Program-made: the position numbers and the translations under genes
Source of the DNA: a virus
Reading direction: 5' to 3' (one strand)
Length of the DNA: 64,000 nucleotides
Virus record (IMG/VR): IMGVR_UViG_3300012012_001194
Location: 1 to 64,000 of that record
In this document: in pieces, positions 14,329 to 63,648 of the stretch
How positions within the stretch are numbered: position 1 is the stretch's first letter
Layout of the letters: every line of letters starts with the position of its first letter
Notes under the pieces: generated by a model
Told to the model about the DNA's origin: nothing
The model's input: only the letters and a program-made list of their open reading frames with translations
Database searches by the model: none

Positions 14329-14790
14329 TTAGCCGCCGTTGGCACTTAGTTCAATTAACTTTTCTATATATCCCAGCACCCCGTATGGAGATTGAAGCGG
14401 ACCATCTCCGCTGCCCTGCCCTCTTCTTCTTCCGGCTGAGAAAGCTTCTGATCTGGCTAAAGAGCAGTGCCTTAAACGAAAGGCTCGCTCCATCGCTTGA
14501 AGATAAGCAGACTGCAGCCTGACGACCTTGGCATCGCCATCAGTTCCTGGCGAGGCTTGGTTGTAAACATCTTGGCAGTTGCTGTCTAGCTCCCCTCTGC
14601 TAAAGGTGTCTCTTACAGCAGCATAATTACCAGGATCTTTGCCCTTGTGGTCTGCAAGCTCCCAAACGCGGGCTCCACCATTAAACATGGCGTCAGCCAT
14701 TTCATTTGACTGCGCAGCCATCTTCGTAATGTTGTCTTTAAACCTAGTATCTGGGCTACTGACCTTTGATATTCCGTAATAGTCACTCAT
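14329..14790 (-). CDS. Hypothetical protein
   Basis: 153 aa; ATGA overlap with the sigma gene. Confidence 0.7.
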   Translation of the reverse strand: MSDYYGISKVSSPDTRFKDNITKMAAQSNEMADAMFNGGARVWELADHKGKDPGNYAAVRDTFSRGELDSNCQDVYNQASPGTDGDAKVVRLQSAYLQAMERAFRLRHCSLARSEAFSAGRRRGQGSGDGPLQSPYGVLGYIEKLIELSANGG

Positions 14791-15617
14791 AGCAGACCCA
14801 TCCTTTCACGGCTGTCCATCTTCTTTTGAATGTCAGCCCTTATTTGGCTTACCCTAGCCGGGGTTATACGCAGCTTGTTAGCAATACTAATGTTATCTAA
14901 TATCTTCTTACCATTCATCCCAAATGTGTGCTCCATGATAAGCTTTGACCTATCGTCTAGGCCGTCATGGACAAAGCCTCTCCAAGCATCGCCTTGCTGC
15001 TGCCCCGGTATAACTGATGATGGATCTGAGGCGTCTTCACTTTCGGAACCTGCAAATGCCTGAGTAGCTGCCCCTTCTGAAAGGCCAGGCTTAAAGCTCC
15101 TAACTCGCTCTATGCGCCTGCCGCTTAGTCCTGTGTAGTCAGCTAGCTCAGAGTCATTAGGCTCTCTACCCAGCTGATCCGTAAGTTCGTTAAATGAGTT
15201 ATTGACGTAGTGGCTGTCAATCCTCACTCTTTCAGGGACATTTAAAATTTGGTTAGACTTAGCTGCAGCTCTTTTTAGGCCTTGGAGGTGCCACATCATA
15301 TGAGTTTTAAGCTTGGACTTTTCTGGGTCATAACTTCTTAGCCCATCCAGGGCCATGCGCTTGGCTTGCAGCTTAACGCTGGGAGAAGCCTCTGCGCCTA
15401 CGTAAGTTTTTATGGCGCTGTCTATGATAGGTTTTAGCTTTCCTACCATCATATCGTTTTGCTCTGGGGATTGGTTTTGCTTCCAAAGCCCGTAATGCTC
15501 ACCAAACTCAGGCTCAATGTTTGAGCTTGGTTTTGGCGGCGTGCCAGGTGCTTGTGGCTTTTGTTTATCTAGAGAGAACATGTTGGGCACTTGTTCAAAC
15601 GGTTTCTTTGGTTCCAT
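14787..15617 (-). CDS. RNA polymerase sigma-70 family factor (group 3, FliA/WhiG-like architecture)
   Basis: Region 2 (GLRSYDPEKSKLKTHMMW), region 3 (LTDQLGREPNDSELADYTGLS), region 4 HTH (IANKLRITPARVSQI). Confidence 0.88.
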   Translation of the reverse strand: MEPKKPFEQVPNMFSLDKQKPQAPGTPPKPSSNIEPEFGEHYGLWKQNQSPEQNDMMVGKLKPIIDSAIKTYVGAEASPSVKLQAKRMALDGLRSYDPEKSKLKTHMMWHLQGLKRAAAKSNQILNVPERVRIDSHYVNNSFNELTDQLGREPNDSELADYTGLSGRRIERVRSFKPGLSEGAATQAFAGSESEDASDPSSVIPGQQQGDAWRGFVHDGLDDRSKLIMEHTFGMNGKKILDNISIANKLRITPARVSQIRADIQKKMDSRERMGLL

Positions 15618-15627
15618 AATTATTCCT

Positions 15628-18567: not shown

Positions 18568-21500
18568 TTAGGCGCTAGAGGTATTACTTGGGCCAACCAT
18601 CCCTGCTAACACTTTTGATTCCAAGCCTAAGGTGCCTGTAATCTCAAACTTCTGCCCTTTCTCAAAGACAGCGGTGACTTGATTTTTGCCTTCCTTTCCA
18701 CCGTTAGGGTCGAGAGCGTTCTTCTCTGCGATAGTGGTCTCTGTCTTCTTGAATAGTTTAATTAGCTTAGCTTCATCAACGTTTCCTTGCTTATCTAGGA
18801 CATCCTTAAAGCCTTTATCAAGCAGCCCCTTTTTAAGGGTCTTTTGCTCGTCACTCAACCCCTTGTCATCGGTGCTTGATAGCAATTCGCTTAAAGCCTT
18901 CATCTGTTGACTTTTACTCTTAACCCCCTCTCCTGGCTTAGTCGCATACCGGCCAGCTGCTTCCATCCCCAAGGTTAAGTCTTTTCCAACTTCTCTTGCT
19001 GCTTTTTCGTGAACCTGCACCTCATCCGCTAGCTTTCCACCTTTCTTCATACCTGACAGCTGAAGATCTTTAGTAAAGAAGTCTATCGCCGTTTGAGCTG
19101 TGCCTGCTTGAAGCTCAGACGCCTTTCCAATAGCTGCCTCTTGGGAAGCTGTCATCTTTGTCTTACCGCCCAAGGTCGTAGCTATGCCTAAATCTTTAAG
19201 ACTACTCATCAGCCCTTTCTTTTCTTGAGTCAGTAAGGCATTAAAATAGGATTTCTTATCTTTATCTTTAGGATCACCCGCCCCCATAAGAGCCATTACC
19301 GCCTGTGGGCTGAAGTCTCCCAGCTTAGTCGCTGCTACTATCTGCTGGGCGCTTACTGCTTTTCCTTGCTTCATTAAATCCTTTGCCATTGATTTGTCTT
19401 TATCAGAAAGGCCTTTCATTGCCGCTTCACTGTCTTTCTTCCAATCTTCCAACCCTGTAAGGTCTTTAACGTTCATACCAGCCTTTATAGCGTACTCCTC
19501 TAACTTCTTTTGGTCCTCAGGGGTTCGTATATTATCTCTTTTAGCCAATAACCTTTCATACTCTACTCGGTCTGGCTCTTTTAACGTCTTATCATAGTTC
19601 TCTTTTTTGGCCTGAAGCTTACTGCGCTCCTCGCCTTGCTTGTTTGAAAGCTCCAAGCGCTCTTTCTCTTCTTCGGCTGTAAGAGGAATATTACTTCCGT
19701 TCTTAAAGCTGTCGTATTCGCCAGCGGCTGGCGCATTAGTCCCGTAATACTCGTTTCTTCCCTGAGTTACCGTATCGCCATCTTTATTAATATAACTAAA
19801 GTTACCGGAAGCTACCTGATCGTCAGTAGCCTTTACAGCTTTACCATCTCTAATTACAAACGACTCTCCGTATTTAATACCGGCTTCGGCTGCCTTATAC
19901 TTGTCGTGCAGCATTTCCAGTTGGTTGTTTTGTCTTACTATGTCATTAGTTTTTATGCCCGCAAGGCTAAGTATCTTTTCTCTTTCTTCTTTTTTAGCCT
20001 TATCTCCTTCAGAGCCTGGATCTAAATGTTGAGACGCAACATCAGAACCCGACTTGTATTTACTTAAGAGATAAGTAAGCGCAGTATCATCTTCGCCGCC
20101 CCTAGAAAGCTCCACAACCTTATCGGTATTCTCTGCCCTAGACTTTCTAGCTTGGAGTGCGTTTAACCTAAGCGCCTCTTTATCACCTTTTGAGCTGACA
20201 TCCCCAGTTTCAGATACCTCAAGCTTAGCTCTATCTTCTGCTGTAAGGGCATCTTGAGGGGTTATTAACTTAGCAAGCTTCTCAAGATCCTGTGTTTCTT
20301 TACCGGTAAGTTTACCATCATACTTCTTGAGTATAGCCGTAGCCTCATCGTAATCTTTACCAACAAGGCCTTTAAACTTGGACTCATCTATCCCGCTTTC
20401 GTCTATAATATCGTTAATCTTCTTGTCGATCTCTTTACGGGCAGCGTCGTCCTTTGGAGAAGTACCTGTTATTTTAGATTTCTGATCTCTAAGGGTACGT
20501 ACTGTCTCAAGCTCGCCAGTGTCTGGGGCTGCCATTTGCTCTAAGGTATGGCCTGTGCCTGTTTCTTTAATAAAAGTGTTTACCGCATTTTCATGGTCTT
20601 CTTGCGCTGTCTGGGCTTTCTTAAATACTTCAAAAGAAGCTTCAAGAGCTTTTAAAGGCTCTCCTTTCAGCTCTTCCTTGGCTTTCTTAGCCGACTCCAT
20701 TTTCGAGCCTATGTTTTCTTTAGTAGTATTAGAGAGATCATCAAGCCTGTTTATTTCTCTAGTCCGTGCGGCTTTTTGAGCTTGAGGCTCGTTAGGGTCA
20801 TCCTTCGTTGTCCTGAGAGCATCTGCTTGCTTTTTAAAGCCACTAGTTATATCTGCAAAAGCATTACCGTTATCTTTATTAGCATAAAGAGTATCCAGCC
20901 CCTCCGACCGTCTATCCGTTTCTTTTATTAGACTAGCAATGTCTATCTGAGGAGGAAGCCCGCCTGCATCAAAGTCTCCGTTGAGTAACTCTCCAGCGTC
21001 TACGCCCAGCGCTTTTGCATAGGCCTCAATTCTTAGTATGCTTCCTTGGGCTTTTTCCTTAGCAGCATTACCTTCAACACCAGCCTTTGAAACCGCTGAT
21101 TTGTCCATGCCGAAATCTGATATGTACTTCTTAGCTAGGTCTACCCCATAGCTAACATCGCCCTTCTCTAAATACTTAATCGCTTCATTAGCGGCGCGGT
21201 CTCCAGAGACGTCCCCTACCATAAGACCTGAGTTGTTCATCCTAATATTAAGTCGCTCAGCTTGTTCTTTGTATTGATTAAGCCTAAATTCTTTCTGCTT
21301 AACTTGGAGCTCTAGCGGACTAAGGTTCTTAGCTTGCTCGACTGTTATGCCGTACTTACTTTCAAAGCCTTGCTGCTCTTGCTTGGCCCTCTCAAGCCCG
21401 CTTGCTTTGACCTTCTGGTCAAGCTCTTTAATCTTTGTATCACTGTCTGTTTGGATATCTACGAGCTTAATTCGCTTAGCTGCATCTTCTTTAGATAATG

Positions 21501-24024
21501 GAGCCCCATCTTTAGCCTTCTGGTCAAGCTCTTTAATCTTTGCAGCACTGTCTGTCTGCTTAGCTACAAGCTTGTCACGGCTGTCCTGATCAGCTTTAGA
21601 TAATGGGGCGCCTTCATCCTTATCAATCATCTTATTGTAATAGTCGGTTGATCCCGCCCTGTCGGTGAAGCCGCTTCTAATTAGGTCTTCTTTAAGGTTA
21701 GTCTGCTCCTCTATTAGCTTTTTCTTCTTTTCTGGGTCTTTTTCTTTGGCGATTGCATCAGCATTAATGGTGATTGCACTTCTAAGGTAATCAGTTTTAA
21801 CCTGTTCACCGTTAGCGCCCTTAAATGCTTCAACTGACTTCTGTAAATCATCAAAGTCCTTAGCAAATATCTCTTTAATCTGATCCTTAGGTTGGAAGTT
21901 CAAAGCTGCAGCCATGAAGTCTTCTACCTTAGTTTCTTTTCCAGCACCTCTAAGGAAGTCAGTCGTCCTCTGTAGGAAGCTGCTCTTGCCCATTCCGCCA
22001 AACCCTTCTTCAAACTGGCTTGTGATATCTGCTTCTTGCTTTAATGCTTGGGCCTCTCTGATCTTCCCTTTGTTCATGCTGTAGGCCATGGTTGGAAGAC
22101 CGCCTTCAAACTTTTGATTCCTAGCGTAGGCGTCTGAGGACTCATAGATAGACCCAGCCATGACAGCAAGTGCCTTCTTATCAGCTGCGGTAGTCTTGAT
22201 ACCTTTTTCCTCAATAATCTTATTGAGGTTTCTCTGGGTTAAACCTTTAAGATCATTAAGGTCATCTTTGCCTAAGTTGTCAGCAAATAGGCCTTCAGAG
22301 GTGCGATCTGTTATTTCTTGCGAGCTTGAATTAAGCAACGTCCTTAACTCTGGGCTAACACCCTTCATAAGTTCTTCGTCATCCATTACACTGCGTACAG
22401 CCGTGCCGTTGTACGCCGATAGCTCGTCAGTTACCAGCCGAGTCTGTCCCTGCCTGCCTATATTAGTATTTATATCGTATTTATTTATAACAGCTTCGTT
22501 AGCATCTCTATTGGCGTTAAGACTTTGAATCACGGATATAGGAACTTTACTACCGGCTAAGAACTGGTTGATTCCGCCTTCTTGCTTGTTTAAATCATAT
22601 ACGTTCTTCTTCTCGCCGTTATATGTGTAGTTTCCGCCAGAGTCCTTATCCTTTATAGCTGCGTACACGGCGGCGAGCTCACTACCCTTCTCGGGTTCGA
22701 CTCCAAAGGTCTCAACGGCTCTTGCTATAGAAGCAACATCTTGAGTCCTATAGTCCCTGGTGGCTTGAACATTAAGCTGCTGGTCGATGTTAAGGAGCTT
22801 GTCTGCGTTTGGTAGCCCAAAGACCTGAGCTCCACCAAATATGTTCTTACCTGCTTGGTTCTCTGCTACGGCTTGGTTAGTGATGCCCGGAACAAATACA
22901 CGGTTAACCCCCGACCTGTCAGCCATGCCAGCTGTGGCGCCCATGAGCTTAAACATCTCTGGCATTTCAATACCGGCAGCCTTAGCCACATTAGAGGTGT
23001 TTCTTACCATACGTGCCAGCTTCTGGGGCTCTATGTTCTGCATATTAGCTTGAGTAAGCGTTTCGATCGCTCCTACGAGCTGAGCCATGGGCGCATTAGG
23101 CTCTCCTGCTTCGCCAAATATCTCAGACATGGCATTAACAGCCTTAGACATGCCCTTCAGCTTACTGGCTATCTTATTGGCGTCTAGTTCCCGCAGCTTA
23201 CGGTCTAAGTCCGGCATTTGGGACACTTCGGAGATGGTGGTCCCCATCTGATCTGCAATTTCCTTCATACCTTTGCCGCGCCCAGATGAGTTAGGCATCA
23301 TGCCTCGGCGCTGAGCTTCATCAAACAATGCACCAGCCCTGCCAGCGGTCATGCCGCCCATAGCAGACGCATCCCCTGAGTAGAGCCTATCGTATACGCC
23401 TTTGGTAATCTCGCCTGCTGATTCTGCGCTGTATCCACGGCGCCCAGTCACTGGGTCGATTGCATACCGACCACCACGGGCCATGTTTTGAGCCATAACG
23501 GTGGCTGAGCCTTTAACCCCCGCCATCTTATCTACGAGATCAGGATTTATTTGTGCCAAGAAGGGCATAGCACTTGCCGCATACGAGGCAACATCGTTAG
23601 CATTTTGGCGCTCTCTTCGACCCATGGGCTGGCCTAGTAGGTTTGCAGACCCCTCAATCATCTCGTAAATAGCCCTTTGATCTCGCTGAGAAGCGATCCC
23701 CATTGCTTTACTTTGATTGCTTAATACAGAACCGGCTTTCATCTGGGAATACATATTCATACCTGACGAAAACTGAGCCGGTACGTACTTACCATTAGGG
23801 CCCGCCCCAGCAAAGCTAGACAGGAGGGGCTGCAGAAGACTGTTTAACGCTACGCTCATGCCTGGATCGGTGACGCCTAGGAGGCCGGCAAGGGGAGGCC
23901 CTTCGCCAACGCTTCCCATACCCCTGCCTTGAGATATGATAGGAGAGGCTAAGCCCTGTGCAAATACGTTAGAGAACACAGACTGTAAATACTGATTAGG
24001 ATTGTAATTATACGGCGGTGCCAA
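18568..24024 (-). CDS. Tape measure protein
   Basis: 1818 aa, helical and Ala/Lys/Glu-rich, no Cys; directly follows the frameshifted chaperone pair; TTG start with GGAGGT RBS. Confidence 0.85.
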   Translation of the reverse strand: MAPPYNYNPNQYLQSVFSNVFAQGLASPIISQGRGMGSVGEGPPLAGLLGVTDPGMSVALNSLLQPLLSSFAGAGPNGKYVPAQFSSGMNMYSQMKAGSVLSNQSKAMGIASQRDQRAIYEMIEGSANLLGQPMGRRERQNANDVASYAASAMPFLAQINPDLVDKMAGVKGSATVMAQNMARGGRYAIDPVTGRRGYSAESAGEITKGVYDRLYSGDASAMGGMTAGRAGALFDEAQRRGMMPNSSGRGKGMKEIADQMGTTISEVSQMPDLDRKLRELDANKIASKLKGMSKAVNAMSEIFGEAGEPNAPMAQLVGAIETLTQANMQNIEPQKLARMVRNTSNVAKAAGIEMPEMFKLMGATAGMADRSGVNRVFVPGITNQAVAENQAGKNIFGGAQVFGLPNADKLLNIDQQLNVQATRDYRTQDVASIARAVETFGVEPEKGSELAAVYAAIKDKDSGGNYTYNGEKKNVYDLNKQEGGINQFLAGSKVPISVIQSLNANRDANEAVINKYDINTNIGRQGQTRLVTDELSAYNGTAVRSVMDDEELMKGVSPELRTLLNSSSQEITDRTSEGLFADNLGKDDLNDLKGLTQRNLNKIIEEKGIKTTAADKKALAVMAGSIYESSDAYARNQKFEGGLPTMAYSMNKGKIREAQALKQEADITSQFEEGFGGMGKSSFLQRTTDFLRGAGKETKVEDFMAAALNFQPKDQIKEIFAKDFDDLQKSVEAFKGANGEQVKTDYLRSAITINADAIAKEKDPEKKKKLIEEQTNLKEDLIRSGFTDRAGSTDYYNKMIDKDEGAPLSKADQDSRDKLVAKQTDSAAKIKELDQKAKDGAPLSKEDAAKRIKLVDIQTDSDTKIKELDQKVKASGLERAKQEQQGFESKYGITVEQAKNLSPLELQVKQKEFRLNQYKEQAERLNIRMNNSGLMVGDVSGDRAANEAIKYLEKGDVSYGVDLAKKYISDFGMDKSAVSKAGVEGNAAKEKAQGSILRIEAYAKALGVDAGELLNGDFDAGGLPPQIDIASLIKETDRRSEGLDTLYANKDNGNAFADITSGFKKQADALRTTKDDPNEPQAQKAARTREINRLDDLSNTTKENIGSKMESAKKAKEELKGEPLKALEASFEVFKKAQTAQEDHENAVNTFIKETGTGHTLEQMAAPDTGELETVRTLRDQKSKITGTSPKDDAARKEIDKKINDIIDESGIDESKFKGLVGKDYDEATAILKKYDGKLTGKETQDLEKLAKLITPQDALTAEDRAKLEVSETGDVSSKGDKEALRLNALQARKSRAENTDKVVELSRGGEDDTALTYLLSKYKSGSDVASQHLDPGSEGDKAKKEEREKILSLAGIKTNDIVRQNNQLEMLHDKYKAAEAGIKYGESFVIRDGKAVKATDDQVASGNFSYINKDGDTVTQGRNEYYGTNAPAAGEYDSFKNGSNIPLTAEEEKERLELSNKQGEERSKLQAKKENYDKTLKEPDRVEYERLLAKRDNIRTPEDQKKLEEYAIKAGMNVKDLTGLEDWKKDSEAAMKGLSDKDKSMAKDLMKQGKAVSAQQIVAATKLGDFSPQAVMALMGAGDPKDKDKKSYFNALLTQEKKGLMSSLKDLGIATTLGGKTKMTASQEAAIGKASELQAGTAQTAIDFFTKDLQLSGMKKGGKLADEVQVHEKAAREVGKDLTLGMEAAGRYATKPGEGVKSKSQQMKALSELLSSTDDKGLSDEQKTLKKGLLDKGFKDVLDKQGNVDEAKLIKLFKKTETTIAEKNALDPNGGKEGKNQVTAVFEKGQKFEITGTLGLESKVLAGMVGPSNTSSA
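21411..21620 (-). repeat. 105-bp (35-aa) tandem duplication within the tape measure gene
   Basis: ccttctggtcaagctctttaatctttg at 21411 and 21516; protein GAPLSK...QTDS..KIKELDQK occurs twice. Confidence 0.85.
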
Positions 24025-50940: not shown

Positions 50941-51159
50941 TTAGCCTCCAATAGTGAGCTTCTTAATGATAGGTGGTGTAATTCCATATTGTTTAAGGAC
51001 ACTTGCAAAATCAGCATCACCTGCTGTATAGCAGGTGATTGTGTTATCAAGGTTATCAAAGAACAAAGCGATCGGGTTATTAAAGCTGTCATAAATGACT
51101 AACCTTGTCGCCTTCGTTATAGGGCCCGCATTAAACGAGTCATGATAATCAAGAAGCAT
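50941..51159 (-). CDS. Small hypothetical protein
   Basis: 72 aa; packed between neighbours. Confidence 0.6.
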   Translation of the reverse strand: MLLDYHDSFNAGPITKATRLVIYDSFNNPIALFFDNLDNTITCYTAGDADFASVLKQYGITPPIIKKLTIGG

Positions 51160-51832
51160 TTCTTCTGTTCTTTCTTAATAAGTGAAGGATGCCTGCAGCC
51201 TTCTCACTAACGCTAAAGTTATCAGCAGCTGTCTTGATTGGTGCAGCACCTTGGTCAGGTGAAGGAGCGCCGCCTTGGTCCTGTTTCTGGCCGTCTGCAC
51301 CTTGCTGGCCTTTAGGGTCATCAAGGATATCATGAGGCAAGTTAAGCCCGAGGGATGAGTAAAGATGGGTCATGAGCTTTTGAATACGGTGCATGTACAC
51401 CTCAGTCTGAGCTCCGTCATTCTTCTTTACAGCACCTTTACCGCCGCCTTTTGCTTCAGCCATAGCTCGTTGCATTTCGTCTTTTACAACTGACCTAATT
51501 TGCTCTGTAGGGTCAGGAGGAGGAGGAGGGGCACCGCCCATCATGGAAGGATCCATAGGGGGAGCACCACCGGCCATAGCAGGGTCCATAGGAGGAGCAC
51601 CGCCAGCCATAGCAGGATCCATAGGAGGAGCACCACCGGCCATAGCAGGATCCATAGGAGGAGCACCACCGGCCATGGCGGGATCCATTGGAGGAGCGCC
51701 TTGTGGAGGGGCGCCGCCCATAGAAGGGTCCATTGGAGGAGCTCCTGGAGGAGCGCCTGCACCCTCTGGAGGCATGAAGGCTCGCTTAACATTGAGTTGT
51801 GCCTGCTTCAAAAGATACTTGTTGATAGCCAT
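51149..51832 (-). CDS. Gly/Pro/Met repeat protein with K-x-A motifs
   Basis: 227 aa; (GGAPPMDPAMA)n; LKQA, VKRA, IKTA, EKAA. Confidence 0.75.
   Translation of the reverse strand: MAINKYLLKQAQLNVKRAFMPPEGAGAPPGAPPMDPSMGGAPPQGAPPMDPAMAGGAPPMDPAMAGGAPPMDPAMAGGAPPMDPAMAGGAPPMDPSMMGGAPPPPPDPTEQIRSVVKDEMQRAMAEAKGGGKGAVKKNDGAQTEVYMHRIQKLMTHLYSSLGLNLPHDILDDPKGQQGADGQKQDQGGAPSPDQGAAPIKTAADNFSVSEKAAGILHLLRKNRRNAS
51528..51757 (-). repeat. 33-bp tandem repeat encoding GGAPPMDPAMA
   Basis: About 5-6 units of ggaggagcaccaccggccatagcaggatccata with synonymous variation. Confidence 0.92.
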
Positions 51833-53463: not shown

Positions 53464-54102
53464 TTAGTCAAGAAGTAGTGGAGAAGCCTTCCTAAGCAGC
53501 TCGGGACGAAGCAACCCGTAGTCCCTTAGAAGCTTTGAAGTTCCTAAGAGGTTTTCATTGTGCCTGCCTGCACTGTAGTATCCGGCAGCTCCGCCAGCAG
53601 CAGCTGGCGCCAAGGTCGCCATGATTGAAGTAGATAGGGGCTGGCCCGTCAGCTTGCTAGCGGCTAAGCCACCAAGACCGCCGATCCCTGCATACCCTAG
53701 CGCTCTAAGCGTTGGGTTAGCCTTATGACTCTTAAAGTCATACTTCTCACTAGGATCGTTCTTTAATTTGTTGATGATGTTCTCAAAGCCAGGCCGGCCT
53801 AAGCCATAACCACTAAGATCGTCATCAGTAGGTTGAACCATGCTCTTGGCTTGGTCCAGCATAGATATAGCCATAGGCATACGGTCAGGACCGGGCTGCA
53901 TGAAGTCCTTAAGGTTCATATTGCGAGCGGACTTCTCAGACGTTAGCTTGCTCCAGTTCTTCTTATCTGGGTAGGCTTCGCTTCCTGGCTTGGCGGGAGT
54001 TCCGCCTCTTTTCTTTTTTGCTTGAATGTTAGCCCACAACCCAGGGTTGCTCTCAGATGCTGATGATTTAAAGAACAAGCTATGTAATCCCTGTAAGCTC
54101 AT
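53464..54102 (-). CDS. Glycine-zipper protein with short basic N-terminal module
   Basis: Likely ATG at 54102 with AAGGAG RBS; GLWANIQAKKKRG module; C-terminal GxxxG pair. Confidence 0.62.
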   Translation of the reverse strand: MSLQGLHSLFFKSSASESNPGLWANIQAKKKRGGTPAKPGSEAYPDKKNWSKLTSEKSARNMNLKDFMQPGPDRMPMAISMLDQAKSMVQPTDDDLSGYGLGRPGFENIINKLKNDPSEKYDFKSHKANPTLRALGYAGIGGLGGLAASKLTGQPLSTSIMATLAPAAAGGAAGYYSAGRHNENLLGTSKLLRDYGLLRPELLRKASPLLLD

Positions 54103-54232: not shown

Positions 54233-55726
54233 TTACTCTTTACTTCCAATTTGTTTAAGCAAATTAAGGAATTGCTCATTTAATTCCTGCTTTCTATTAG
54301 CGGCAGAAATCAAATAGTCATCCGTAGCTGGTACTGGATCTGCTCCAACACCCACATATCTCAACATAGATCTTAGCCTACCGGGGGCTGTCCTAGCTAT
54401 GTATCTTTCTATTTGAACCTTCCTATCTTCTATAGGGAGGTGCTCATGGCTATCAAAGCGCAAAGCCCTTCCTTCACTCTGACTACTCCTAGCAGTGTTC
54501 CAATGCGGGTCTAATAGCTGAACTAGCTTAGTTCCCTTAAAGGAAAGACCCTCAGTTCCAGACGGGCCTAAGAGCGCAACCTTAAGCTTGTCGGTATTGT
54601 AGTCGTCTACTAAGCGCTTACGCTCTTTATCAGATAGGGCGCCCGTGAAAGAGGCAGCTGGAATGCCAGCTCGGTCTAGCGCCGCTTGATAAGGGGAAAG
54701 CCCAGCATCAATGAAGTTGGAGAAGATCAGGGCTTTGCCCTTGGGGTCTTTATCCAAGAGCCCTTTAAGATTACTAAAGGCAGTGGTCAGCTTGGGCGAG
54801 TCATCAAATGCCTTTTGGACATCTTTGTTACCCTTCATAAATGGAAGAGTAGAAAGACCTACCTGTCTCAGCCCCGTCATGAAGCTGGTCATTCGGCTGA
54901 CCTCTTCCTGCGTCAGCGGGTAATTCATCTTGAGCTTCCATCGAAGCGCAGCAGGAAGCTGCCCCATCATGTAGCTGTTAAGGTCGGTCTGGTTTTGGCT
55001 CATCTCTACGACGACGTCTTTGCGGTTAATCTCAGCTTTGGGAGCCAGAGGTGCAAAGTAATCCACCTTCCCTTGAAGCTTGTTTTTAAGCTGATCTTGG
55101 TTGATGATCGATGGCTCGCCGGGAGCCCCGTTGAAGATGCGCTTGTACCACGGCTGCTTGGGAGCCTCATCCATGTACATGTTACCGAACTCTTCAGGGC
55201 TCATGTCCTCGCCAGTGAGGATGTTATAAGGCACTGTGAAGTCGCTTGGGTCGTTAACTACTGGTGTGCCCGTGAGAAGCACCACCTGCCTAGCCTTTCT
55301 AGCAGCTTCTACTAGGTTCTTGGCTTGAGCCGAGTTTGGATTACGGAAGCGATGAGCCTCATCTACTAAGAGGGAGCCTGGGTTCTCAATCGTACGGCCA
55401 AGCGCTACTCCGGTGTGGCTCATGATGCTACTTGGCGTAGCAGTTGGTTGATCAATAAACTTTTCCTGCTCCTTACGTAAGTTGTTACGTAGAGAAGCTG
55501 GAACTACAGCGGTGTAAGGTATTTTTGACTCGTCTGCTGCAGCTAAGCCGCTTAGTGTTTTTCCAGACCCAAGGCTGTGATAAAGCAACATACGAGCTTT
55601 GCCAGCTGTGTCTAACTGTTTCTGTACCTTATCTACTACTCCCTGCTGGTGCGGCTGCAGCGAGATATTAGGATTAAGGTCAGCCTGTTTTGTGGAGACG
55701 TCTCCACTAATGTAGTCTTGGGTCAC
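54233..55726 (-). CDS. SNF2-family (SF2) helicase/translocase
   Basis: LQPHQ, GSGKT, DEAH, LTGTP, IFSNF, GTEGLS, DPHWN, QSEGRALR. Confidence 0.95.
   Translation of the reverse strand: MTQDYISGDVSTKQADLNPNISLQPHQQGVVDKVQKQLDTAGKARMLLYHSLGSGKTLSGLAAADESKIPYTAVVPASLRNNLRKEQEKFIDQPTATPSSIMSHTGVALGRTIENPGSLLVDEAHRFRNPNSAQAKNLVEAARKARQVVLLTGTPVVNDPSDFTVPYNILTGEDMSPEEFGNMYMDEAPKQPWYKRIFNGAPGEPSIINQDQLKNKLQGKVDYFAPLAPKAEINRKDVVVEMSQNQTDLNSYMMGQLPAALRWKLKMNYPLTQEEVSRMTSFMTGLRQVGLSTLPFMKGNKDVQKAFDDSPKLTTAFSNLKGLLDKDPKGKALIFSNFIDAGLSPYQAALDRAGIPAASFTGALSDKERKRLVDDYNTDKLKVALLGPSGTEGLSFKGTKLVQLLDPHWNTARSSQSEGRALRFDSHEHLPIEDRKVQIERYIARTAPGRLRSMLRYVGVGADPVPATDDYLISAANRKQELNEQFLNLLKQIGSKE
55692..55707. repeat. 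Dispersed palindrome copy 7 (perfect 16-mer)
   Basis: In the N-terminal leader of the SNF2 gene (SGDVSTKQA). Confidence 0.95.
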
Positions 55727-55728
55727 GG

Positions 55729-58700
55729 CTACTCCACTATGACAACTTTGTCGTTGGCATCAATCTCGCCGGAACGGTACGCACGCATGGCATCAGCCTT
55801 AGTCTTGAAGTACCTCTCTGGCCTCTTAGATGCTTCAGAAGTGGCGGTGTAGAGCCCGCCTTGGTATTCATTCATTGGCAACTGATGAACCTTGAAGTTC
55901 TTTACAGCGAACAGGTTTCTGCTGGGTAGCATCTTCTCCATAGCGTCTTTAACCGCTTCGTCAGTAGTAGGCACATGGTAGTTCATAGCATCGCCATCGA
56001 AGTCGGCGCCAAACCCTTTTACAATAATAGGAGGAACTTGAAGAGTACTTCCCTTAACAAGGGTAGGCCTAAACGCCATAACCCCATATCTATGTAACAC
56101 TGGAGCACGAGTAATGATAACAGGTCTTGCTTCCATCTCAGAAGTCATGGCATCCATAGCCATCTTATCTTTATTCTCTATCATTTCTGCGGCTTTAAAC
56201 CTATCAACTCCACGCCTGACTAATCTTCTCATAATAAATGGCTTATACACTGCCCAAGCCCTGTCTTCAGGGATACCGACTTGATCCATGTCCAGTTCTG
56301 GATTAGGAGTAATAGCAGCCCTACCTACCATGTCAACATTAGATGCTAATAGCTTTCTTTGAAGGACACTGAACTTAGGGTTATCACCAAAGACTTGCTT
56401 TAGTATTCCCTTTACGTTCTTCTGCTCTAACTTTGGATTGGTAGCATCGCCAAGCCCAGTTACGGCTTTGAGGGAGTCATAAACGCTTGTTCTATGCTCA
56501 GAAAGATCAGAGAAGCTCTTGGACGACTCCCTCATCTCGTTGTTAGAGTCGATCAACTCTTTATAAAGATAGTTAGCGTCTCCAACCATAGGCAGCCCGC
56601 TTGACTGCATCACGCTAACTGGCCTAAATAAAGGAGGAAGCACAGGAGCTTTAGACATCATCCAGTCAGATGGATGCATATTCAGTTCTTTAGTGCTCTT
56701 AAGATACCCAAGTTTACGAACTGCTTCATCTCTGTAAGACTTCTTACCAGAAGCTATCTGAGCTCTGGCTTTCATGATCTCTTGGTCGACATTGATCTTC
56801 TTTAGTGCTATCCCAATAGCGTTAGGTCCCTTAACGCCGTTAAGAGCTTCTTTACCAGCTAATACGTCTCTAAATTTGTTCTCTGTTAATCCCAGTACTT
56901 TGCGTATGGGCTCTTCCATAACAGGGTTAGGCATCGGCTCGTGCAGCTTTATGTGGCTCCACATCGTACCGCCATGGCCGCCCGTAAGCTTAGGGTCAAA
57001 TAACCCATCACCGACTGGCTTCATGCCGCCTTCCCAATCTACGGTGTCGGATCGCTTAATCTCACGATCGCCTGAGAGGGAGTCTATATCTCTATCAGTC
57101 AATGCCATGAGCTGTGTCTTGGAGCCGCTGCGCACGGGGTTAATTCCAGCTGCTTGGAGCTGTGCCATAAACTTGCGATAGGTCAAAGGCACTCTAGGGA
57201 TTGGCATAGCCTTGCCCCCCATGAAGGCCGCCCAGTAATCATCGTTCTTCTGGCCTCGAATAGCTCCTGCGTCTCTTAGAACCTCATGGGCCCCGTGAGA
57301 GAGTAGAGCGTTAACGTCCATGAGGGCCATTCTTTTAGATCCGGTCTCTCCGCCTTTAGCCGGGGTCTCTTCAGCGGTGTACCCGCTAGAAATTCCTCGA
57401 CCTTGGCCTTTAGACTCAGAGGTGTGATGCAACTTCATAAAGAAGCGATTGCCTGTGAAGATGTTCTTAATCTTCTTACCTGACTCAGGATCTTCGAGGT
57501 CTTCCATATCACTAAGGTTGTTTTTTCTAAGCTCATCGATAGCGAACTCAGTAAGGTCTTCGATGTTGTCGAAGTCTTTAACTGCGTAGCGTTTACCTGT
57601 CTTCTCAGATATCTTTCCAAGAGCAGCTTCTACCATCTGGCTTGGATTAGTTCGAGTAATAACCCCAAGCGGGTTTAGTAGTACTTCAAAGGGCCGTCCG
57701 TCTGCGCCTTTTGGCATCTTGTCATCAGGAACAACAGTGGAGATAACTCCTTTATCACCATAACGCCCGGAGAGCTTATCTCCTTCTTTCATGGGGTTAA
57801 GGCTCTTTACCGTTACTGCAAATCCTTTTTTAGTTTGAGCCACGTCGGTAACCACACCTTCGTTCTCGTGATCCCACGTGGTGCTGGCGTTATTAAACCC
57901 AGTCCTAGACCTTCCAACTTGCTGGTTATGGGCTCTTGAGAGTACGTTAGCTTGTAAGATAAGTGGGTCACCTTTTCTTACAACTGTACCCGGCTTAATC
58001 ACACCGTTGTCGTCAAGGTTGTCTACGAGGGCCCTAGAATAATCAGAAGGAAACAGTGTAAGAAACGCCCGCTTTCCAGGCTTGGTGTCTTTGTCAAATT
58101 CAGCCTCATGCTGATACATGTGCTCAGAGGTTAGACGTTTAGCTGCGCCTTCTGAAATAACAATAGCGTCTTCAAAGTTGTAACCCTTGTAAGGTATGTA
58201 GGCGGTTCTAAGATTAGTGCCTAGCGCAGATGTGCCTTTGTCATTAGTGTAGTTAGATCTAGCTAACAAGTCACCTTGGTTGACAACATCACCAACTTTT
58301 ACGGTAGCCGTGTTATGTAGAAAAGTCTTACGGTTGAATGGAAGATTATTATAGATCTCTTTCTTGTGAAGCTGGCCGTCTTCTCCCCGTACATGAATCT
58401 CATCACCATCTACTTTGATTACTTGGCCCGCTACATCAGAGTGTATAGCGCCCATATGTTTACCGTAATCTTCCTCATAAGACTTGTCGTCTTCATCGGG
58501 CATACCTGATTGCACATAAGGGGCTTCAGGGTTTTGTAGGGGTAGCGCCTGCGTAAGCATGCGGGCGCCCATCATTACTCGCTGCCCTTTGGTAGCGCTC
58601 TTAAGAGGAATCATATTGGCTAGCTGATTAAAGGCGTGCTCCATGCGAGGAAGCTCATGGCTAACCTCTGCTCTGTTCACGTACTTGATCTTACCGTTAA

Positions 58701-60204
58701 CTAAAGCAGCTATCTTTTGATTATTAGGATCTCGAAGCTGATTAGGGAACGCCACAACAGAGTCGGCCATCTCTTGAGGAGTTCGCCACACTTGCTCGTT
58801 AGTGTTCACGTCTCTAAATCCGCCATACACCTTTCCATCAATACCTTTTCTGGAGTTGATAGCAATACGACTGTCTACGCCTACTTTGAGAGACTCTGGA
58901 GTTAGCAAGGGGTCTACAAAGCCAAAGTGAGACGGCTGTACGTTACGAGCCTCTTCAGGTACAGATTGCAGCGAAGGGATACCGCCTTCACCGAGGCGGC
59001 TAATCCTAGTTACTTGGTTAAGCAGGTCGGCAGGGTTAACTTCTTCAAGGGGTTGGCCTAACCCGCTAGTCATAATGGCGCCATTAATCTGAGAGTTTAA
59101 AAACCCAGCGCTGAAAGGGCTTAGGTTCTTCCTGAAGCTAGCCTTCCATAGCAGAGGGCGCATTACTCGGTGTGCAGCGTTGACCCTTTCTGCAAATAAG
59201 TCTTCAGGCCCAACCATAGACTGATACGCCATAGCGTCACGGTCGTCTGGGTCTACCTCTTTACGGTGGACAGCTAATATCTTCTTAGTAGCAGCTAAAA
59301 TAGAATCTGCTGATACGTTCTTAAACGGCTGACCTAAAGTGCGAGACGTAACCTCGGGATCCATCTCCATCTTGGCGATAGCTTCTAATATAGATTGCTT
59401 TTTACTCTCTGCGGTATGAATCTCGCCTGCCTTAGTCTTGCCTATCTTGGCAAACAGCTTTTCCATATGGTTTGGATCGTCGGTAGCAGAGTTAGCACTG
59501 TAGATCTCATTACCCCAGGCTTCTCTAAGCTGCTTGTCAGTAGCGCCAAGGGCTTTTAGTAAAGGAGTAACAGGTACAGAGGATTGGCCGAAGCCTATAG
59601 AAAATACACCCTTCTCAGGATCTAGCGAGTAGCGATGGGACGAGCCTTTTCCTGGCATAACGTTGACATGGCTTTCGACTTCACCATTCTTAGCGATACG
59701 AGTGAACACGCCTGGCTTTAGCCGCATTTGATTAGCTAACGTGTATTCAGTGCCGGTGACGATGAAAGTGCCACGGTCGGTCATATAGGGAACTTTAGCC
59801 AGCGTAGTTCTACGGGTGTCTAGCGTATCGCCAGTAACATTATCTGTTAATGTTAGCGTACCTTTAAGTGCCCGATTTAAGGTATCGCCCTTAAGAATTG
59901 CATTCTTCTGTGACTTGATAGACTTCTGCTCATCGGGGTCGTCCCAGCCAATATCCGAAACACTTAAGGTGTGCCTCTGGTTTACTAATGGTTGGATGTT
60001 AGATGCGGCAGCTTGAATACCAGAAAAGATAGCAGTCCTAGTAGCTTTGATATCATCAAACTTGCGCATTGGCGGCGGTACGGGGGGTTGCATAACGGGC
60101 GGCGGCAGGGTAGGAGCTGCCGTAGAAGCAACCAAGCCGACTGGCTTAGGCTTAGTCGGCTCGGAGCTCAGAACACTGTTATCGTCATCAAGTATTCCAG
60201 CCAT
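55729..60204 (-). CDS. Phage DNA-directed RNA polymerase: beta fused to the N-terminal half of beta'
   Basis: beta motifs PYMTDRGTFIV, GYNFEDAIVISE, GDKLSGRYGDKGVIS, LNPLGV, MKLHH; beta' motifs GLFD, PVLPP..RP, RAPVLH and catalytic GADFDGD (55990-56010). Confidence 0.96.
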   Translation of the reverse strand: MAGILDDDNSVLSSEPTKPKPVGLVASTAAPTLPPPVMQPPVPPPMRKFDDIKATRTAIFSGIQAAASNIQPLVNQRHTLSVSDIGWDDPDEQKSIKSQKNAILKGDTLNRALKGTLTLTDNVTGDTLDTRRTTLAKVPYMTDRGTFIVTGTEYTLANQMRLKPGVFTRIAKNGEVESHVNVMPGKGSSHRYSLDPEKGVFSIGFGQSSVPVTPLLKALGATDKQLREAWGNEIYSANSATDDPNHMEKLFAKIGKTKAGEIHTAESKKQSILEAIAKMEMDPEVTSRTLGQPFKNVSADSILAATKKILAVHRKEVDPDDRDAMAYQSMVGPEDLFAERVNAAHRVMRPLLWKASFRKNLSPFSAGFLNSQINGAIMTSGLGQPLEEVNPADLLNQVTRISRLGEGGIPSLQSVPEEARNVQPSHFGFVDPLLTPESLKVGVDSRIAINSRKGIDGKVYGGFRDVNTNEQVWRTPQEMADSVVAFPNQLRDPNNQKIAALVNGKIKYVNRAEVSHELPRMEHAFNQLANMIPLKSATKGQRVMMGARMLTQALPLQNPEAPYVQSGMPDEDDKSYEEDYGKHMGAIHSDVAGQVIKVDGDEIHVRGEDGQLHKKEIYNNLPFNRKTFLHNTATVKVGDVVNQGDLLARSNYTNDKGTSALGTNLRTAYIPYKGYNFEDAIVISEGAAKRLTSEHMYQHEAEFDKDTKPGKRAFLTLFPSDYSRALVDNLDDNGVIKPGTVVRKGDPLILQANVLSRAHNQQVGRSRTGFNNASTTWDHENEGVVTDVAQTKKGFAVTVKSLNPMKEGDKLSGRYGDKGVISTVVPDDKMPKGADGRPFEVLLNPLGVITRTNPSQMVEAALGKISEKTGKRYAVKDFDNIEDLTEFAIDELRKNNLSDMEDLEDPESGKKIKNIFTGNRFFMKLHHTSESKGQGRGISSGYTAEETPAKGGETGSKRMALMDVNALLSHGAHEVLRDAGAIRGQKNDDYWAAFMGGKAMPIPRVPLTYRKFMAQLQAAGINPVRSGSKTQLMALTDRDIDSLSGDREIKRSDTVDWEGGMKPVGDGLFDPKLTGGHGGTMWSHIKLHEPMPNPVMEEPIRKVLGLTENKFRDVLAGKEALNGVKGPNAIGIALKKINVDQEIMKARAQIASGKKSYRDEAVRKLGYLKSTKELNMHPSDWMMSKAPVLPPLFRPVSVMQSSGLPMVGDANYLYKELIDSNNEMRESSKSFSDLSEHRTSVYDSLKAVTGLGDATNPKLEQKNVKGILKQVFGDNPKFSVLQRKLLASNVDMVGRAAITPNPELDMDQVGIPEDRAWAVYKPFIMRRLVRRGVDRFKAAEMIENKDKMAMDAMTSEMEARPVIITRAPVLHRYGVMAFRPTLVKGSTLQVPPIIVKGFGADFDGDAMNYHVPTTDEAVKDAMEKMLPSRNLFAVKNFKVHQLPMNEYQGGLYTATSEASKRPERYFKTKADAMRAYRSGEIDANDKVVIVE

Positions 60205-60205: not shown

Positions 60206-61153
60206 TTAGGCCTCGTATTCTAGAGTTTTACCTATGTCACCGGAAGGTCTAAGAGTTTTCTTGTTTTTAGCGACATCTACGGGAACAGGAATTGAATAGA
60301 TGGGCTGCCCCTCTATTGCTCTGCGGTTAAGGAACTCGTTGAGGTAACGTTGGGATTCTAGCTTCTCAGCGTCGTTCTTCTTGGCATCTTGATACCCTGT
60401 GTATATACCTGCAGTACCGAGGCCCAGACCTAGCGCTCCGAGTACACCGGCGTATCCTTTTAAGGCGTCCTTAGGATTTGGAGTATTATCTTTAATCTTC
60501 CTACCTAACGCTCCAATACCCGCAACCACGTTTCCACCAAAATCCAATAAGTTGTCCTTAGCTTGCTTCTCGCCTTCAGAATGAAACTCAGCTAACTTCT
60601 CTAAGTCCTCAGCCAAACTAGCGGACTTAACCGCTTTAATAGGCGAGCTCAATCTATTAGAGTGAGCCTCTACTAGAGCCTTACCAAATTCAGCTTTAGC
60701 GTCGGTAAGCTCTTGATCTTTCTCTGCTTTAACTTTCTTAGTTAGCAAATGGTTTATAAGAGAGTAGCTTCCAACCGCTGGAACAGCGGCGGCAGTAAGC
60801 GCCGCTGAAAGATAGTAAGGGTTAGCCAGATCACCAGGCTGAAACTTTGACTCCTTTTCCATGGAGATATTCTTGCCGGGTTTATAAGTACCTAGATTCT
60901 TTGCTTTACCTTTAAGCTTGCGCTTACGTCTACTCTCAAAGAACTCAGAAGTGCCTGGAATGGCACTCTGACCAGGAACAGGGACTTCCACCATGGATCC
61001 GCTAGGAGCACCAAGGGTTGACTCCCTGTCTGTGAGAAGCGAGCCGCTATTTAGATGCTTAAGCAGAGCTAAGCCAGAGCCCCCTAGTAAGCTATAAAGA
61101 CCAGTCCTCTTTAAATCTTCCATCTGCCTAGAGTCGAAATAATCGTTTGGCAT
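60206..61153 (-). CDS. Membrane-type/glycine-zipper protein with K-x-A motifs
   Basis: 315 aa; hydrophobic Gly/Ala segments; VKSA, EKLA, EKQA; no Cys. Confidence 0.6.
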   Translation of the reverse strand: MPNDYFDSRQMEDLKRTGLYSLLGGSGLALLKHLNSGSLLTDRESTLGAPSGSMVEVPVPGQSAIPGTSEFFESRRKRKLKGKAKNLGTYKPGKNISMEKESKFQPGDLANPYYLSAALTAAAVPAVGSYSLINHLLTKKVKAEKDQELTDAKAEFGKALVEAHSNRLSSPIKAVKSASLAEDLEKLAEFHSEGEKQAKDNLLDFGGNVVAGIGALGRKIKDNTPNPKDALKGYAGVLGALGLGLGTAGIYTGYQDAKKNDAEKLESQRYLNEFLNRRAIEGQPIYSIPVPVDVAKNKKTLRPSGDIGKTLEYEA

Positions 61154-61506: not shown

Positions 61507-61515
61507 AATGCCTTT

Positions 61516-61932: not shown

Positions 61933-61936
61933 AATG

Positions 61937-62293
61937 TTATCCTAGTATGATACCTGAGTTAGTTACGCTAGCGCCTGTAGACCAGATCCTACGATTATCG
62001 TGTGCTAAGTCTTTTATGACCTTAGCGTCTGTAGGGTCGCCCTGTTCCTTGGCTTCTTGAATGCACAGCATGATGTCTCTAGCCGCTGCAATAATCTGAG
62101 ACTTCTCATCTTGGTGCTGGACTCGGCTGGACTCCTCAAACAAGGCCTTGGCCCTCTTTCTCATGACGCTAATAGGCTCGGACTTGTCAGAGCCGTCTCT
62201 GCCGTCGTGAATACGGATAAGCCCGCCTTCAGCCCAGAATTCTATCTGGTTGTATTTATAAGTCTTCTTAATGCTAATCGAAGGAACATCCAT
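61937..62293 (-). CDS. Hypothetical protein
   Basis: 118 aa; within the operon. Confidence 0.65.
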   Translation of the reverse strand: MDVPSISIKKTYKYNQIEFWAEGGLIRIHDGRDGSDKSEPISVMRKRAKALFEESSRVQHQDEKSQIIAAARDIMLCIQEAKEQGDPTDAKVIKDLAHDNRRIWSTGASVTNSGIILG

Positions 62294-62352
62294 AACCAGC
62301 CCTTTCAGTTAAAACCCAATAATACACTAATTTAAGCAGGCTGTCACTCAGC

Positions 62353-63648
62353 TTATTGGCCAAAGAATCCAGGCACCACTGCCTTAATAGCCCCCGCTAC
62401 AACGCCTGCGCCCTGCAGCGTTCTTTGAGCCTGCGGAGTCAAGCCTACCAAAGCGCCTAAGACTTTGCCACCTAAAGTAGCTTGCACATACCCAGCGCCC
62501 ATACCTAGGCCGACCCTAGCAATGTCCATCGGAGTTATGAAGCCAGTGTTACCCCGCATGTTATTAGCGGCCCCTACTACGCCCATCGTAGCTGCCTGCA
62601 AATACGATGGAGTGAACGGGTCATTTAAAACTAAGCGGTTAAAGGCGTCAACTGGTACCGGCTCTAAACCAAAGATTGATTGATTGTTATTAAAGAAGTC
62701 AGCAGCTTTGCTCATCTCGCTAGAGATACTAGGCTGCAGCTCTGCTAAAGCTTGAGAAGCCTTAATGATTGGAGGCGTAGTATGCGGGTTGCCATAGAGC
62801 ACGTTAGGAGTAGTAAAGGCGTTCCACGCACTAGACTTGCGATCTGGGTTTAGCTTATTATCCCAAGTAGAAGCTCCAAGTACTCCAAGCGCCGCGCCGG
62901 GAGCAGCTCCAAGAGCGCCGCCAAGCATAGCTAAGCGCTTACGCAACTTACCTTTCTCAAATACATTAGGGGCAACGTTCTCAGCTATAGTTCCAGCACC
63001 GTAGCCAAGGCCTGCTGCAAGAGTGCCGCCGGCTACCATCGATGCAAGAGGTGTTGGACCCCCAAAGCGGCTAGCAAAGCTGGAGGGCGTAATCATAGCC
63101 ATTTGAGAGATGGGCCTAAGGATGCTAGATATAGTAGCGCTGGCAGACTTTACTAAAATCCAAGGGTGCTCAAGGTTGGGCCGGCTGACTTTATTAGCCA
63201 CGCCTTGCTTAGTCAAGAAAGTGGAGACGTCTCCACTGGGGACTAACACCTTACCTGAAACTGGGCTGAGCCAAGCGTGCATATTAGGTGAGAGGGCCCT
63301 AGCTATCTTTTCGTAAAGCTTTTTTGATGATGAGATGTAGGTGCTTATAAGCTCGGGCACATGCTGCCACGCTAAATCTTCAGCAATTTTGTTCAGACCT
63401 TCTTGCCTAGAAACAGTGTAAGGGATAATATCCCTAGGTGCGTGGACTTTAAATGCCGTTGGGACGTGCGTTACCCCTACAAACTTCTTATTAAGATCAG
63501 AATCAATGACGAAATCCTCTGGCCTTTCCATGAAGAGCTTCCTCAATATTTTGTTCTTTTCGTGATAGTTACGGTCGTCCGACATCTGCTTCGCTAGAAG
63601 AAGCTGGTGCAGGTCGGCCTTTGGGTTGCGTTCTGTCTCTAGCTGCAT
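62353..63648 (-). CDS. Glycine-zipper protein, first gene of the minus-strand block
   Basis: Likely ATG at 63648 with GGAGG RBS; NKIA, VKSA, SKAA; several GxxxG segments; no Cys. Confidence 0.65.
   Translation of the reverse strand: MQLETERNPKADLHQLLLAKQMSDDRNYHEKNKILRKLFMERPEDFVIDSDLNKKFVGVTHVPTAFKVHAPRDIIPYTVSRQEGLNKIAEDLAWQHVPELISTYISSSKKLYEKIARALSPNMHAWLSPVSGKVLVPSGDVSTFLTKQGVANKVSRPNLEHPWILVKSASATISSILRPISQMAMITPSSFASRFGGPTPLASMVAGGTLAAGLGYGAGTIAENVAPNVFEKGKLRKRLAMLGGALGAAPGAALGVLGASTWDNKLNPDRKSSAWNAFTTPNVLYGNPHTTPPIIKASQALAELQPSISSEMSKAADFFNNNQSIFGLEPVPVDAFNRLVLNDPFTPSYLQAATMGVVGAANNMRGNTGFITPMDIARVGLGMGAGYVQATLGGKVLGALVGLTPQAQRTLQGAGVVAGAIKAVVPGFFGQ
63220..63237. repeat. Dispersed palindrome copy 8 (perfect 18-mer)
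   Basis: Read as SGDVST. Confidence 0.95.

Follow-up and report, generated by a model that had tools for sequence, protein, structure and literature searches.

A cysteine-free bacterial-type RNA polymerase with a sigma factor and an SNF2 ATPase in a freshwater phage: a probable virion-carried transcription system

N4-like, phiKZ-like, and crAss-like phages are known to carry RNA polymerases (RNAPs) in their virions. This study concerns a bacterial-type RNAP, a sigma-70-family factor, and an SNF2-family ATPase, all free of cysteine (Cys), that are encoded by an uncultured freshwater phage with a genome of about 200 kb, for which this Cys-free enzyme is the only RNAP encoded. The window analyzed comprises positions 1–64,000 of a 101.5-kb IMG/VR contig (IMGVR_UViG_3300012012_001194; CheckV completeness 49%), and near-identical DNA is found in lake and freshwater metagenomes of several studies. 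An earlier note, written from the sequence alone, had proposed that the phage injects the polymerase and its sigma factor together with the ATPase, and that Cys was purged from chains that must cross an oxidizing periplasm. We consider a virion-carried, ejected RNAP holoenzyme that contains sigma, together with accessory proteins, to be the best explanation of the data and a likely one.

Coliphage N4 packs an RNAP into its virion, from which it is ejected to carry out early transcription. As the earlier note had premised, this enzyme (gp50, 3500 amino acids, aa) has no Cys; gp50, gp51, and gp52 together have none in 4294 aa, whereas the N4 replication enzymes contain 1.1–1.4% Cys. Suppression of Cys is conserved across the ejection operon of the Schitoviridae, and the paper that reports it cites an earlier suggestion that passage through a periplasm with disulfide-forming enzymes is the cause (PMC11445570). 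A version in which disulfides block injection was put forward for N4-like phages (PMC3915230). Both the Cys rule and its periplasmic rationale are therefore already published for N4-like phages. The N4 enzyme is a single-subunit, T7-like RNAP of a podovirus, which has a second RNAP of its own and relies on the host RNAP late in infection, whereas the present phage has a bacterial-type two-chain RNAP with a sigma factor and an SNF2 protein, and a sheath homolog. In phage T7, also a podovirus, the internal core proteins gp14, gp15, and gp16 are ejected through the tail and form a trans-envelope conduit without polymerase function; gp15 (747 aa) and gp16 (1318 aa) have no Cys, compared to 1.4–2.7% in the cytoplasmic enzymes of T7.

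The phiKZ-like phages and AR9/PBS2 resemble the present phage in having a multisubunit beta/beta'-type RNAP without alpha or omega, which in those phages is packaged in the head and injected. They differ in possessing virion and non-virion RNAP sets made of four to five split chains, with a virion enzyme that lacks a recognizable sigma, whereas in the present lineage there is a single set with a beta-beta' fusion, together with a sigma-70-family factor, and Cys is absent. Reviews describe the phiKZ and AR9 RNAPs as being without sigma homologs (PMC7598289, PMC13282480). Poxviruses package a multisubunit RNAP together with an SNF2-family ATPase, NPH-I. For the mReC lineage, defined by a bacterial-like beta/beta' and a T4-type capsid protein (PF07068), the RNAP part fits the present phage; the capsid protein of the latter has no Pfam match at E 0.05, PF07068 included. 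The mReC paper is silent on chain fusion, sigma, virions, and cysteine (PMC7481178).

Arash, a cultured Salmonella myovirus (OQ632216), encodes homologs of all four chains at 25–34% identity, namely gp206 (beta fused to the N-terminal part of beta', 31%), gp216 (the C-terminal part of beta'), gp217 (SNF2, 34%), and gp10 (sigma). A beta/beta'N fusion plus a separate beta'C chain is common to the present phage, Arash, and the Vibrio phages D69, D148, and D181. The RNAP genes of Arash are located between those for the portal and the capsid and have the SNF2 gene beside them; its sigma gene, as in the present phage, lies between a gene for a long Cys-free protein and a baseplate wedge gene. Virion data for this distant relative are published; the paper lists proteins only, and a packaged transcription system or a Cys rule is neither established nor analyzed in it (PMC10585845). 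The literature search did not find the combination of a large lineage, a bacterial-type, sigma-dependent, zinc-free, single-copy RNAP, an SNF2 protein, and a strict exclusion of Cys.

The four genes in question are the following:

55729–60204, minus strand: RNAP beta fused to the N-terminal part of beta' (beta/beta'N), 1491 aa, 0 Cys; Pfam matches and homology to Arash gp206
54233–55726, minus strand: SNF2-family ATPase, 497 aa, 0 Cys; directly downstream of beta/beta'N, Pfam matches
49019–50938, minus strand: C-terminal part of RNAP beta' (beta'C), 639 aa, 0 Cys; Pfam Rpb1_5 and homology to Arash gp216
14787–15617, minus strand: sigma-70-family factor, 276 aa, 0 Cys; between the tape-measure-like and baseplate wedge genes

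All long open reading frames (ORFs) of the window are on the minus strand; the sole long plus-strand ORF, a ribonucleotide reductase (RNR), begins at 63682 and extends beyond it. The placement of the RNAP, sigma, and SNF2 genes inside a morphogenesis operon, claimed earlier, is borne out, as they share a single minus-strand block with the capsid, sheath, and baseplate wedge genes. Within this block the sigma gene is 33 kb away from the RNAP genes, in the tail module.

Pfam and PHROGs bore out the identities assigned to the RNAP, the sigma factor, and the SNF2 protein. The beta/beta'N chain matches Rpb2_6 (E 6.5e-51) and Rpb1_2 (E 1.3e-21), and beta'C matches Rpb1_5 (E 1.5e-19). The catalytic DFDGD motif is located at residues 1401–1405 of beta/beta'N, and D1401, D1403, and D1405 are invariant among 25 homologs. 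Cellular beta' has two four-Cys zinc sites (Cys 70/72/85/88 and 814/888/895/898 in Salmonella); as the phage chains have no Cys, both are necessarily absent. No match to alpha (PF01000) or omega (PF01192) was found in the present contig or in four relatives that are 83–92% complete; 14 of 14 control genomes match these profiles, which very divergent analogues could escape. Each of the same four relatives has only a single RNAP set, with one beta and one beta' match on the same ORF. Since one set also serves the cytoplasm, the position of the genes in a late operon is not itself proof of packaging.

The sigma factor matches PHROG 351 (E 2.6e-8) and aligns over its full length with regions 2–4 of RpoS, SigA, and RpoD (E 4.7e-5). 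In Pfam, region 3 scored 24.0 against a cut-off of 25.3, and the region 2 and region 4 models gave no match. The SNF2 protein exceeded the cut-offs of SNF2-rel_dom (30.0 vs. 24.9) and Helicase_C (47.8 vs. 23.5), and ResIII was matched as well. Its best match among solved structures is vaccinia NPH-I (E 2e-9); Rad5, ISWI, and Rad54 also match. The match to NPH-I spans the generic helicase C-terminal domain only, and poxviruses infect eukaryotes by another entry route. The likeness is an analogy rather than a demonstrated homology of the systems. A RapA-like identity was rejected, as RapA is not among the solved matches. The SNF2 gene is translationally adjacent to beta/beta'N in the present phage and to beta'C in Arash.

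In addition, the sigma factor was modeled in complex with beta'N (residues 1020–1491) alongside three controls. The model scored 0.75, compared to 0.35 for the best control; among solved complexes, 58 of 80 reach this mark, and among mismatched pairs, 2 of 110. The runs agreed in at least 56% of contacts, and the predicted local distance difference test (pLDDT) value of the partner was at least 70. In the model, sigma region 2 docks onto a helical hairpin of beta'N (residues 1196–1244). This indicates likeness rather than binding, as sigma and the beta' clamp helices are a textbook solved pair and the result may reflect memory of it.

The recount reproduced the absence of Cys reported for beta/beta'N, beta'C, sigma, SNF2, and an 1818-aa protein. 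Among the proteins of at least 300 aa in the window, 13 of 39 are Cys-free, whereas 1.1 were expected and the maximum in 2000 shuffles was 5. Cys codons (TGY) do not occur in frame in the Cys-free genes, whereas the other genes have 12.2 per 1000 codons. Off frame, the frequencies are similar, with 18.6 and 41.9 in the two shifted frames of the Cys-free genes and 23.0 and 39.4 in those of the others. Base composition was ruled out as the cause by this frame control, because TGT and TGC are missing in frame only and occur normally off frame in both gene sets.

Homologs of the four chains, both close and distant, turned out to be Cys-free rather than to carry normal Cys levels, a rule that holds across hundreds of relatives. 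Among 108 intein-free homologs of beta/beta'N (53–91% identical), 96 have no Cys, 10 have one, and 2 have two. The sigma factor is Cys-free in 43 of 44 homologs and SNF2 in 108 of 120, where the members with 8–11 Cys carry inteins. Inteins are frequent in the RNAP and SNF2 genes of the lineage. In beta/beta'N they interrupt the chain at no fewer than four sites (following query residues 437, 626, 811, and 851), and beta'C has several insertion sites. In the 12 intein-bearing homologs of beta/beta'N, 90 of 92 Cys are located within the inteins. Similarly, for 150 cluster representatives of beta'C, the Cys content is 0.085% in the aligned part and 1.88% in the inteins. Ser or Thr serves as the +1 extein nucleophile without exception, so the mature chain keeps no Cys from splicing. 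Most relatives have a fused C-terminal extension of beta'C (350–1150 aa, of low complexity, and rich in A, G, P, and Q), which contains 0.044% Cys in the same representatives and is missing from the present 639-aa chain; the extensions gave no BLAST match to separate proteins of the present phage. The Cys status is also maintained ortholog by ortholog in comparison with G001, a 190-kb relative that is 92% complete, fast-evolving proteins included: the orthologs of the 1818-aa protein (47% identical) and of a 976-aa protein (37% identical) are Cys-free in both phages. Because TGY is missing only in frame, homologs are Cys-free, and inteins carry Cys, the pattern of the sequences indicates that selection on the mature protein is the cause of the absence.

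Cytoplasmic enzymes of the same genomes are not equally Cys-free and show normal or high Cys contents in both the present phage and G001. On the present contig, RNR has 20 Cys, asparagine synthase 4, an aminotransferase 5, and PhoH 6. In the remaining 80 kb of G001 nearly all proteins contain 1–4.5% Cys, among them a DnaB-like helicase (12 Cys), a second (ResIII) helicase (7), an SbcC-like protein (11), TerL (13), and glycosyl- and methyltransferases (14–16 each). A second sigma-like gene in the non-structural region of the relatives has 2–3 Cys (157023–157736 of G001 and Arash gp196, 3 Cys each, and VPHD69_0246 of Vibrio phage D69). Judged from the sequences, the Cys-bearing second sigma, set beside the Cys-free one encoded in the tail module, suggests that a single RNAP core changes its sigma.

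The question whether such proteins are absent from purified virions was answered in the negative for Arash, where the homologs are among the best-detected virion proteins. In virion mass spectrometry, gp206 ranks first with 128 unique peptides (PMC10585845). Based on these data, the unique peptides per 100 aa are 8.4 for gp206, 6.6 for gp216, 8.1 for gp217, and 10.3 for gp10, compared to 9.8 for the capsid protein, 5.5 for the portal, 1.4 for RNR, and 0.2 for the primase. Arash chains are also depleted in Cys (gp206, 1 in 1525 aa; gp217 and gp10, none). According to our own tally of Arash proteins not shorter than 300 aa, those detected with 12 or more unique peptides contain 0.33% Cys, and the rest 1.17%.

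The virion presence of the Arash homologs, the lack of Cys in homologs, and the Cys content of cytoplasmic enzymes support the proposal that the RNAP, sigma factor, and SNF2 protein are carried in the virion. For the present phage, a sequence of events can be envisaged as follows. The single RNAP (beta/beta'N and beta'C) would be made late, alongside head and tail proteins, and the virion would be loaded with this RNAP, one dedicated sigma-70-family factor, the SNF2 ATPase, and glycine-zipper and low-complexity proteins. On infection, the packed proteins would exit via the tail, either together with the DNA or before it, and then refold, and the sigma-containing holoenzyme would start early transcription without need for the host polymerase. 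Later, the second, Cys-bearing sigma made after infection would probably redirect the same core. Cys would be selected against in each chain that makes the journey through the tail, as disulfides or zinc sites may hamper storage in an oxidizing particle, threading through a narrow tube, and passage near the periplasmic disulfide-forming enzymes.

Several observations weigh against this interpretation. The single RNAP set must also work when newly made in the cytoplasm. The only virion data are those on Arash, whose beta/beta'N is 31% identical; the preparation held many non-structural enzymes as well, and the authors left packaging versus carry-over undecided (PMC10585845). In the clade of Arash and D69, the exclusion of Cys is less strict (1–2 Cys in beta/beta'N, 4 in beta'C), and D69 has no adjacent SNF2 gene. 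The capsid and tail tube proteins of Arash are also Cys-free, so that low Cys in this phage marks virion proteins generally and not only ejected ones. In the injected virion RNAP of phiKZ, 17 of 2856 residues are Cys (0.60%, vs. 1.16% in the non-virion RNAP); absence of Cys is therefore neither needed for ejection nor proof of it. Finally, Met, itself prone to oxidation, is 1.38 times as frequent in the Cys-free set as in the other proteins, which weakens a simple rationale of oxidation damage.

The alternative that survives best accepts packaging and ejection and differs in the reason for the loss of Cys. Disulfides formed during storage in an oxidizing capsid would cross-link the chains and stop them from passing through the tail, or the refolding chains would be unable to restore zinc sites, with the periplasm playing no part. 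We regard this as a credible possibility, although short of probable. A version of it was proposed for N4-like phages (PMC3915230), it agrees with the loss of both four-Cys zinc sites of cellular beta', and contractile tails deliver via a tube, which limits exposure to the periplasm. The composition of the Cys-free set of the whole contig, in which Trp is down to 0.42-fold and Ile, His, and Phe to about 0.7-fold relative to the other proteins, would also suit chains that have to unfold; the same set contains 1.2 to 1.4 times as much Met, Gln, Pro, Lys, Ala, and Gly. However, the present data fit the periplasmic version equally, and the retention of Cys by the phiKZ virion RNAP speaks against this alternative. 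Moreover, the shell and tail proteins of the present phage reside in the same oxidizing milieu and keep their Cys, which suggests that ejection counts more than mere residence in the particle.

A second alternative, which we consider unlikely, is that the proteins are packaged but that the sigma factor, SNF2, or both do not serve the phage RNAP. In that case the sigma factor, once injected, would turn the host core RNAP towards early phage promoters, and SNF2 would work on DNA, for instance by pulling in the genome or clearing host proteins. Large phages without their own RNAP do pair sigma homologs with the host core (PMC7598289, PMC13282480), and the 33 kb between the sigma and RNAP genes as well as the lack of an adjacent SNF2 gene in D69 would fit. 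On the other hand, sigma accompanies the phage RNAP throughout the lineage and obeys the same Cys rule, the model places its region 2 on the phage beta'N hairpin (subject to the memory caveat given above), SNF2 is translationally adjacent to one or the other RNAP chain, and the peptide densities of all four Arash proteins are similar (6.6–10.3).

Slightly less probable still is that an ordinary intracellular RNAP of the late operon is not packaged, that it became Cys-free through cytoplasmic thiol chemistry disturbed by phage or host defence or through lineage history after the loss of the zinc sites, and that the Arash signal stems from carried-over late proteins of high abundance, a possibility its authors raise with RNR, ligases, and primase on their list (PMC10585845): a single set must indeed act when newly made, but other intracellular enzymes contain 1–4.5% Cys and thus indicate no general thiol problem, history alone cannot keep zero Cys at 45–70% divergence or in exteins but not inteins, the carry-over enzymes of Arash reach 0.2–1.4 unique peptides per 100 aa against 6.6–10.3 for the four proteins, and the proven ejected proteins of N4 and T7 bear the same signature.

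If the virion-carried, sigma-containing holoenzyme is real, it would represent a fourth design of virion RNAP and the one closest to the cellular enzyme, with two chains, a sigma-family factor, and an SNF2 partner, yet without zinc, alpha, or omega, and with one polymerase for the whole infection cycle. With more than 1,500 homologs of beta/beta'N, many on contigs of about 200 kb, the lineage is large; it is also widespread in lakes, and its cultured members on Salmonella and Vibrio make the proposal directly testable. A zinc-free and Cys-free bacterial-type RNAP that survives ejection would be a natural minimal enzyme for studies of RNAP folding and assembly. The Cys rule, checked against inteins, would provide a predictor from sequence of ejected phage proteins, a set that is otherwise hard to define.

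The other genes of the block that bear on the Cys rule are listed below; the major capsid and sheath-like proteins belong to the Cys-bearing comparison set within the operon.

12187–13821, minus strand: baseplate wedge protein; homology to Arash and PHROG 6
18568–24024, minus strand: tape-measure-like protein, 1818 aa, 0 Cys, 1 Trp, 54 Met; from position and size
29321–32086, minus strand: sheath-like protein, 921 aa, 4 Cys; homolog of Arash gp236 (E 2e-36)
37228–38157, minus strand: major capsid protein, 309 aa, 2 Cys; homolog of Arash gp226 (E 4e-40)
42068–43057, minus strand: glycine-zipper protein, 329 aa, 0 Cys; nine GxxxGxxxG motifs, one hydrophobic segment
45365–45796, minus strand: Cys-free ORF, from its Cys count
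48648–49019, minus strand: Cys-free protein, 123 aa; downstream of beta'C
51149–51832, minus strand: Met-rich, Cys-free protein, 227 aa; G001 ortholog 91% identical, 0 Cys
51882–53378, minus strand: glycine-zipper protein, 498 aa, 0 Cys; seven GxxxGxxxG motifs
53464–54102, minus strand: Cys-free protein, 212 aa from the ATG at 54102; AAGGAG site before the ATG
60206–61153, minus strand: Cys-free protein, 315 aa, one hydrophobic segment; upstream of beta/beta'N
62353–63648, minus strand: Cys-free glycine-zipper protein, 431 aa from the ATG at 63648; GGAGG upstream of the ATG

The earlier claim that the glycine-zipper proteins are Cys-free held for those at 42068, 51882, 60206, and 62353. The ORF at 53464 has one Cys, at residue 7, if it is read from the TTG at 54171; as this Cys precedes the ATG that follows the AAGGAG site, and the G001 ortholog likewise has none, the protein itself is likely to be Cys-free. 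The gene at 62353 is the first of the minus-strand block, and its longer ORF (62353–63750, 465 aa) also has no Cys. The G001 ortholog of the protein at 42068 is 45% identical and Cys-free, and the protein at 51882 matches Pfam Gly-zipper_Omp short of the cut-off (E 5.7e-4).

The label of tape measure for the 1818-aa protein, whose lack of Cys was confirmed, is founded on position, size, and weak leads, and the protein is probably a tape measure. It occupies the same position as the Cys-free gp4 of Arash, and tape-measure clusters of the ESM Atlas scored 0.84–0.85, which are leads at most. The structural proteins said to contain Cys do so (sheath 4, tube 2 + 2, capsid 2, hub 10, fibre 9–10), but homology supports the identity of the capsid, the sheath, and one baseplate wedge protein only. 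PHROGs and Pfam gave almost no matches to the structural proteins, leaving the labels tube, neck, hub, spike, and fibre without homology support, and the name sheath for the gp236 homolog comes not from the Arash record but from the earlier note and the present analysis. The portal was not identified, and PDB sequence searches with two candidates were empty. A protein of 891 aa with 10 Cys (25557–28232) shows a weak match to DUF2345 (VgrG-type) and is probably a tail hub or spike. A protease (phrog_3677, E 2.5e-82) is encoded at 8007–8927, amid genes of the baseplate region.

Beyond the window, a second Cys-free block is present on the same contig (81189–96836). It comprises nine proteins without assigned function, with sizes of 367, 211, 217, 473, 760, 350, 162, 976, and 128 aa, which are candidates for further ejected proteins. 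Several are rich in glycine-zipper motifs, with 19 GxxxGxxxG motifs in the 760-aa protein; for the 976-aa protein, the ESM Atlas yielded no usable lead. Tentatively, the Cys-free signature could be extended to an ejected proteome of at least 25 proteins, which take up roughly one third of what the contig encodes. Besides the sigma-dependent transcription machine and the SNF2 motor, it would include glycine-zipper membrane proteins and long chains rich in A, G, P, and Q, and it might form a transcription-competent entry structure at the host membrane, with one polymerase throughout that passes from the injected Cys-free sigma to the newly made Cys-bearing one. This wider reading is possible but doubtful. 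Within the same block, a gene on the minus strand (82303–84489) encodes a 728-aa protein with a 2H phosphoesterase, a NUDIX domain, and DUF4269, possibly an RNA-end-processing enzyme beside candidate virion proteins.

Taken as a whole, the Cys-free set shows no enrichment of Lys-x-Ala, a mark of head proteases (observed/expected 1.11, vs. 1.43 in the other proteins). Of the 20 Cys-free proteins, 8 have a conserved Lys-x-Ala within the first 30 residues, as do 9 of the 56 others, a difference that is not significant (p 0.057). Such early motifs may mark a leader cut by the head protease, which the sequences suggest at most. An early Lys-x-Ala, within the first 25 or so residues, also occurs in the capsid protein and a scaffold-like protein; the genes concerned are those at 37228, 39209, 42068, 48648, 51149, and 54233 of the window and at 85128, 85816, 91047, and 93265 of the contig.

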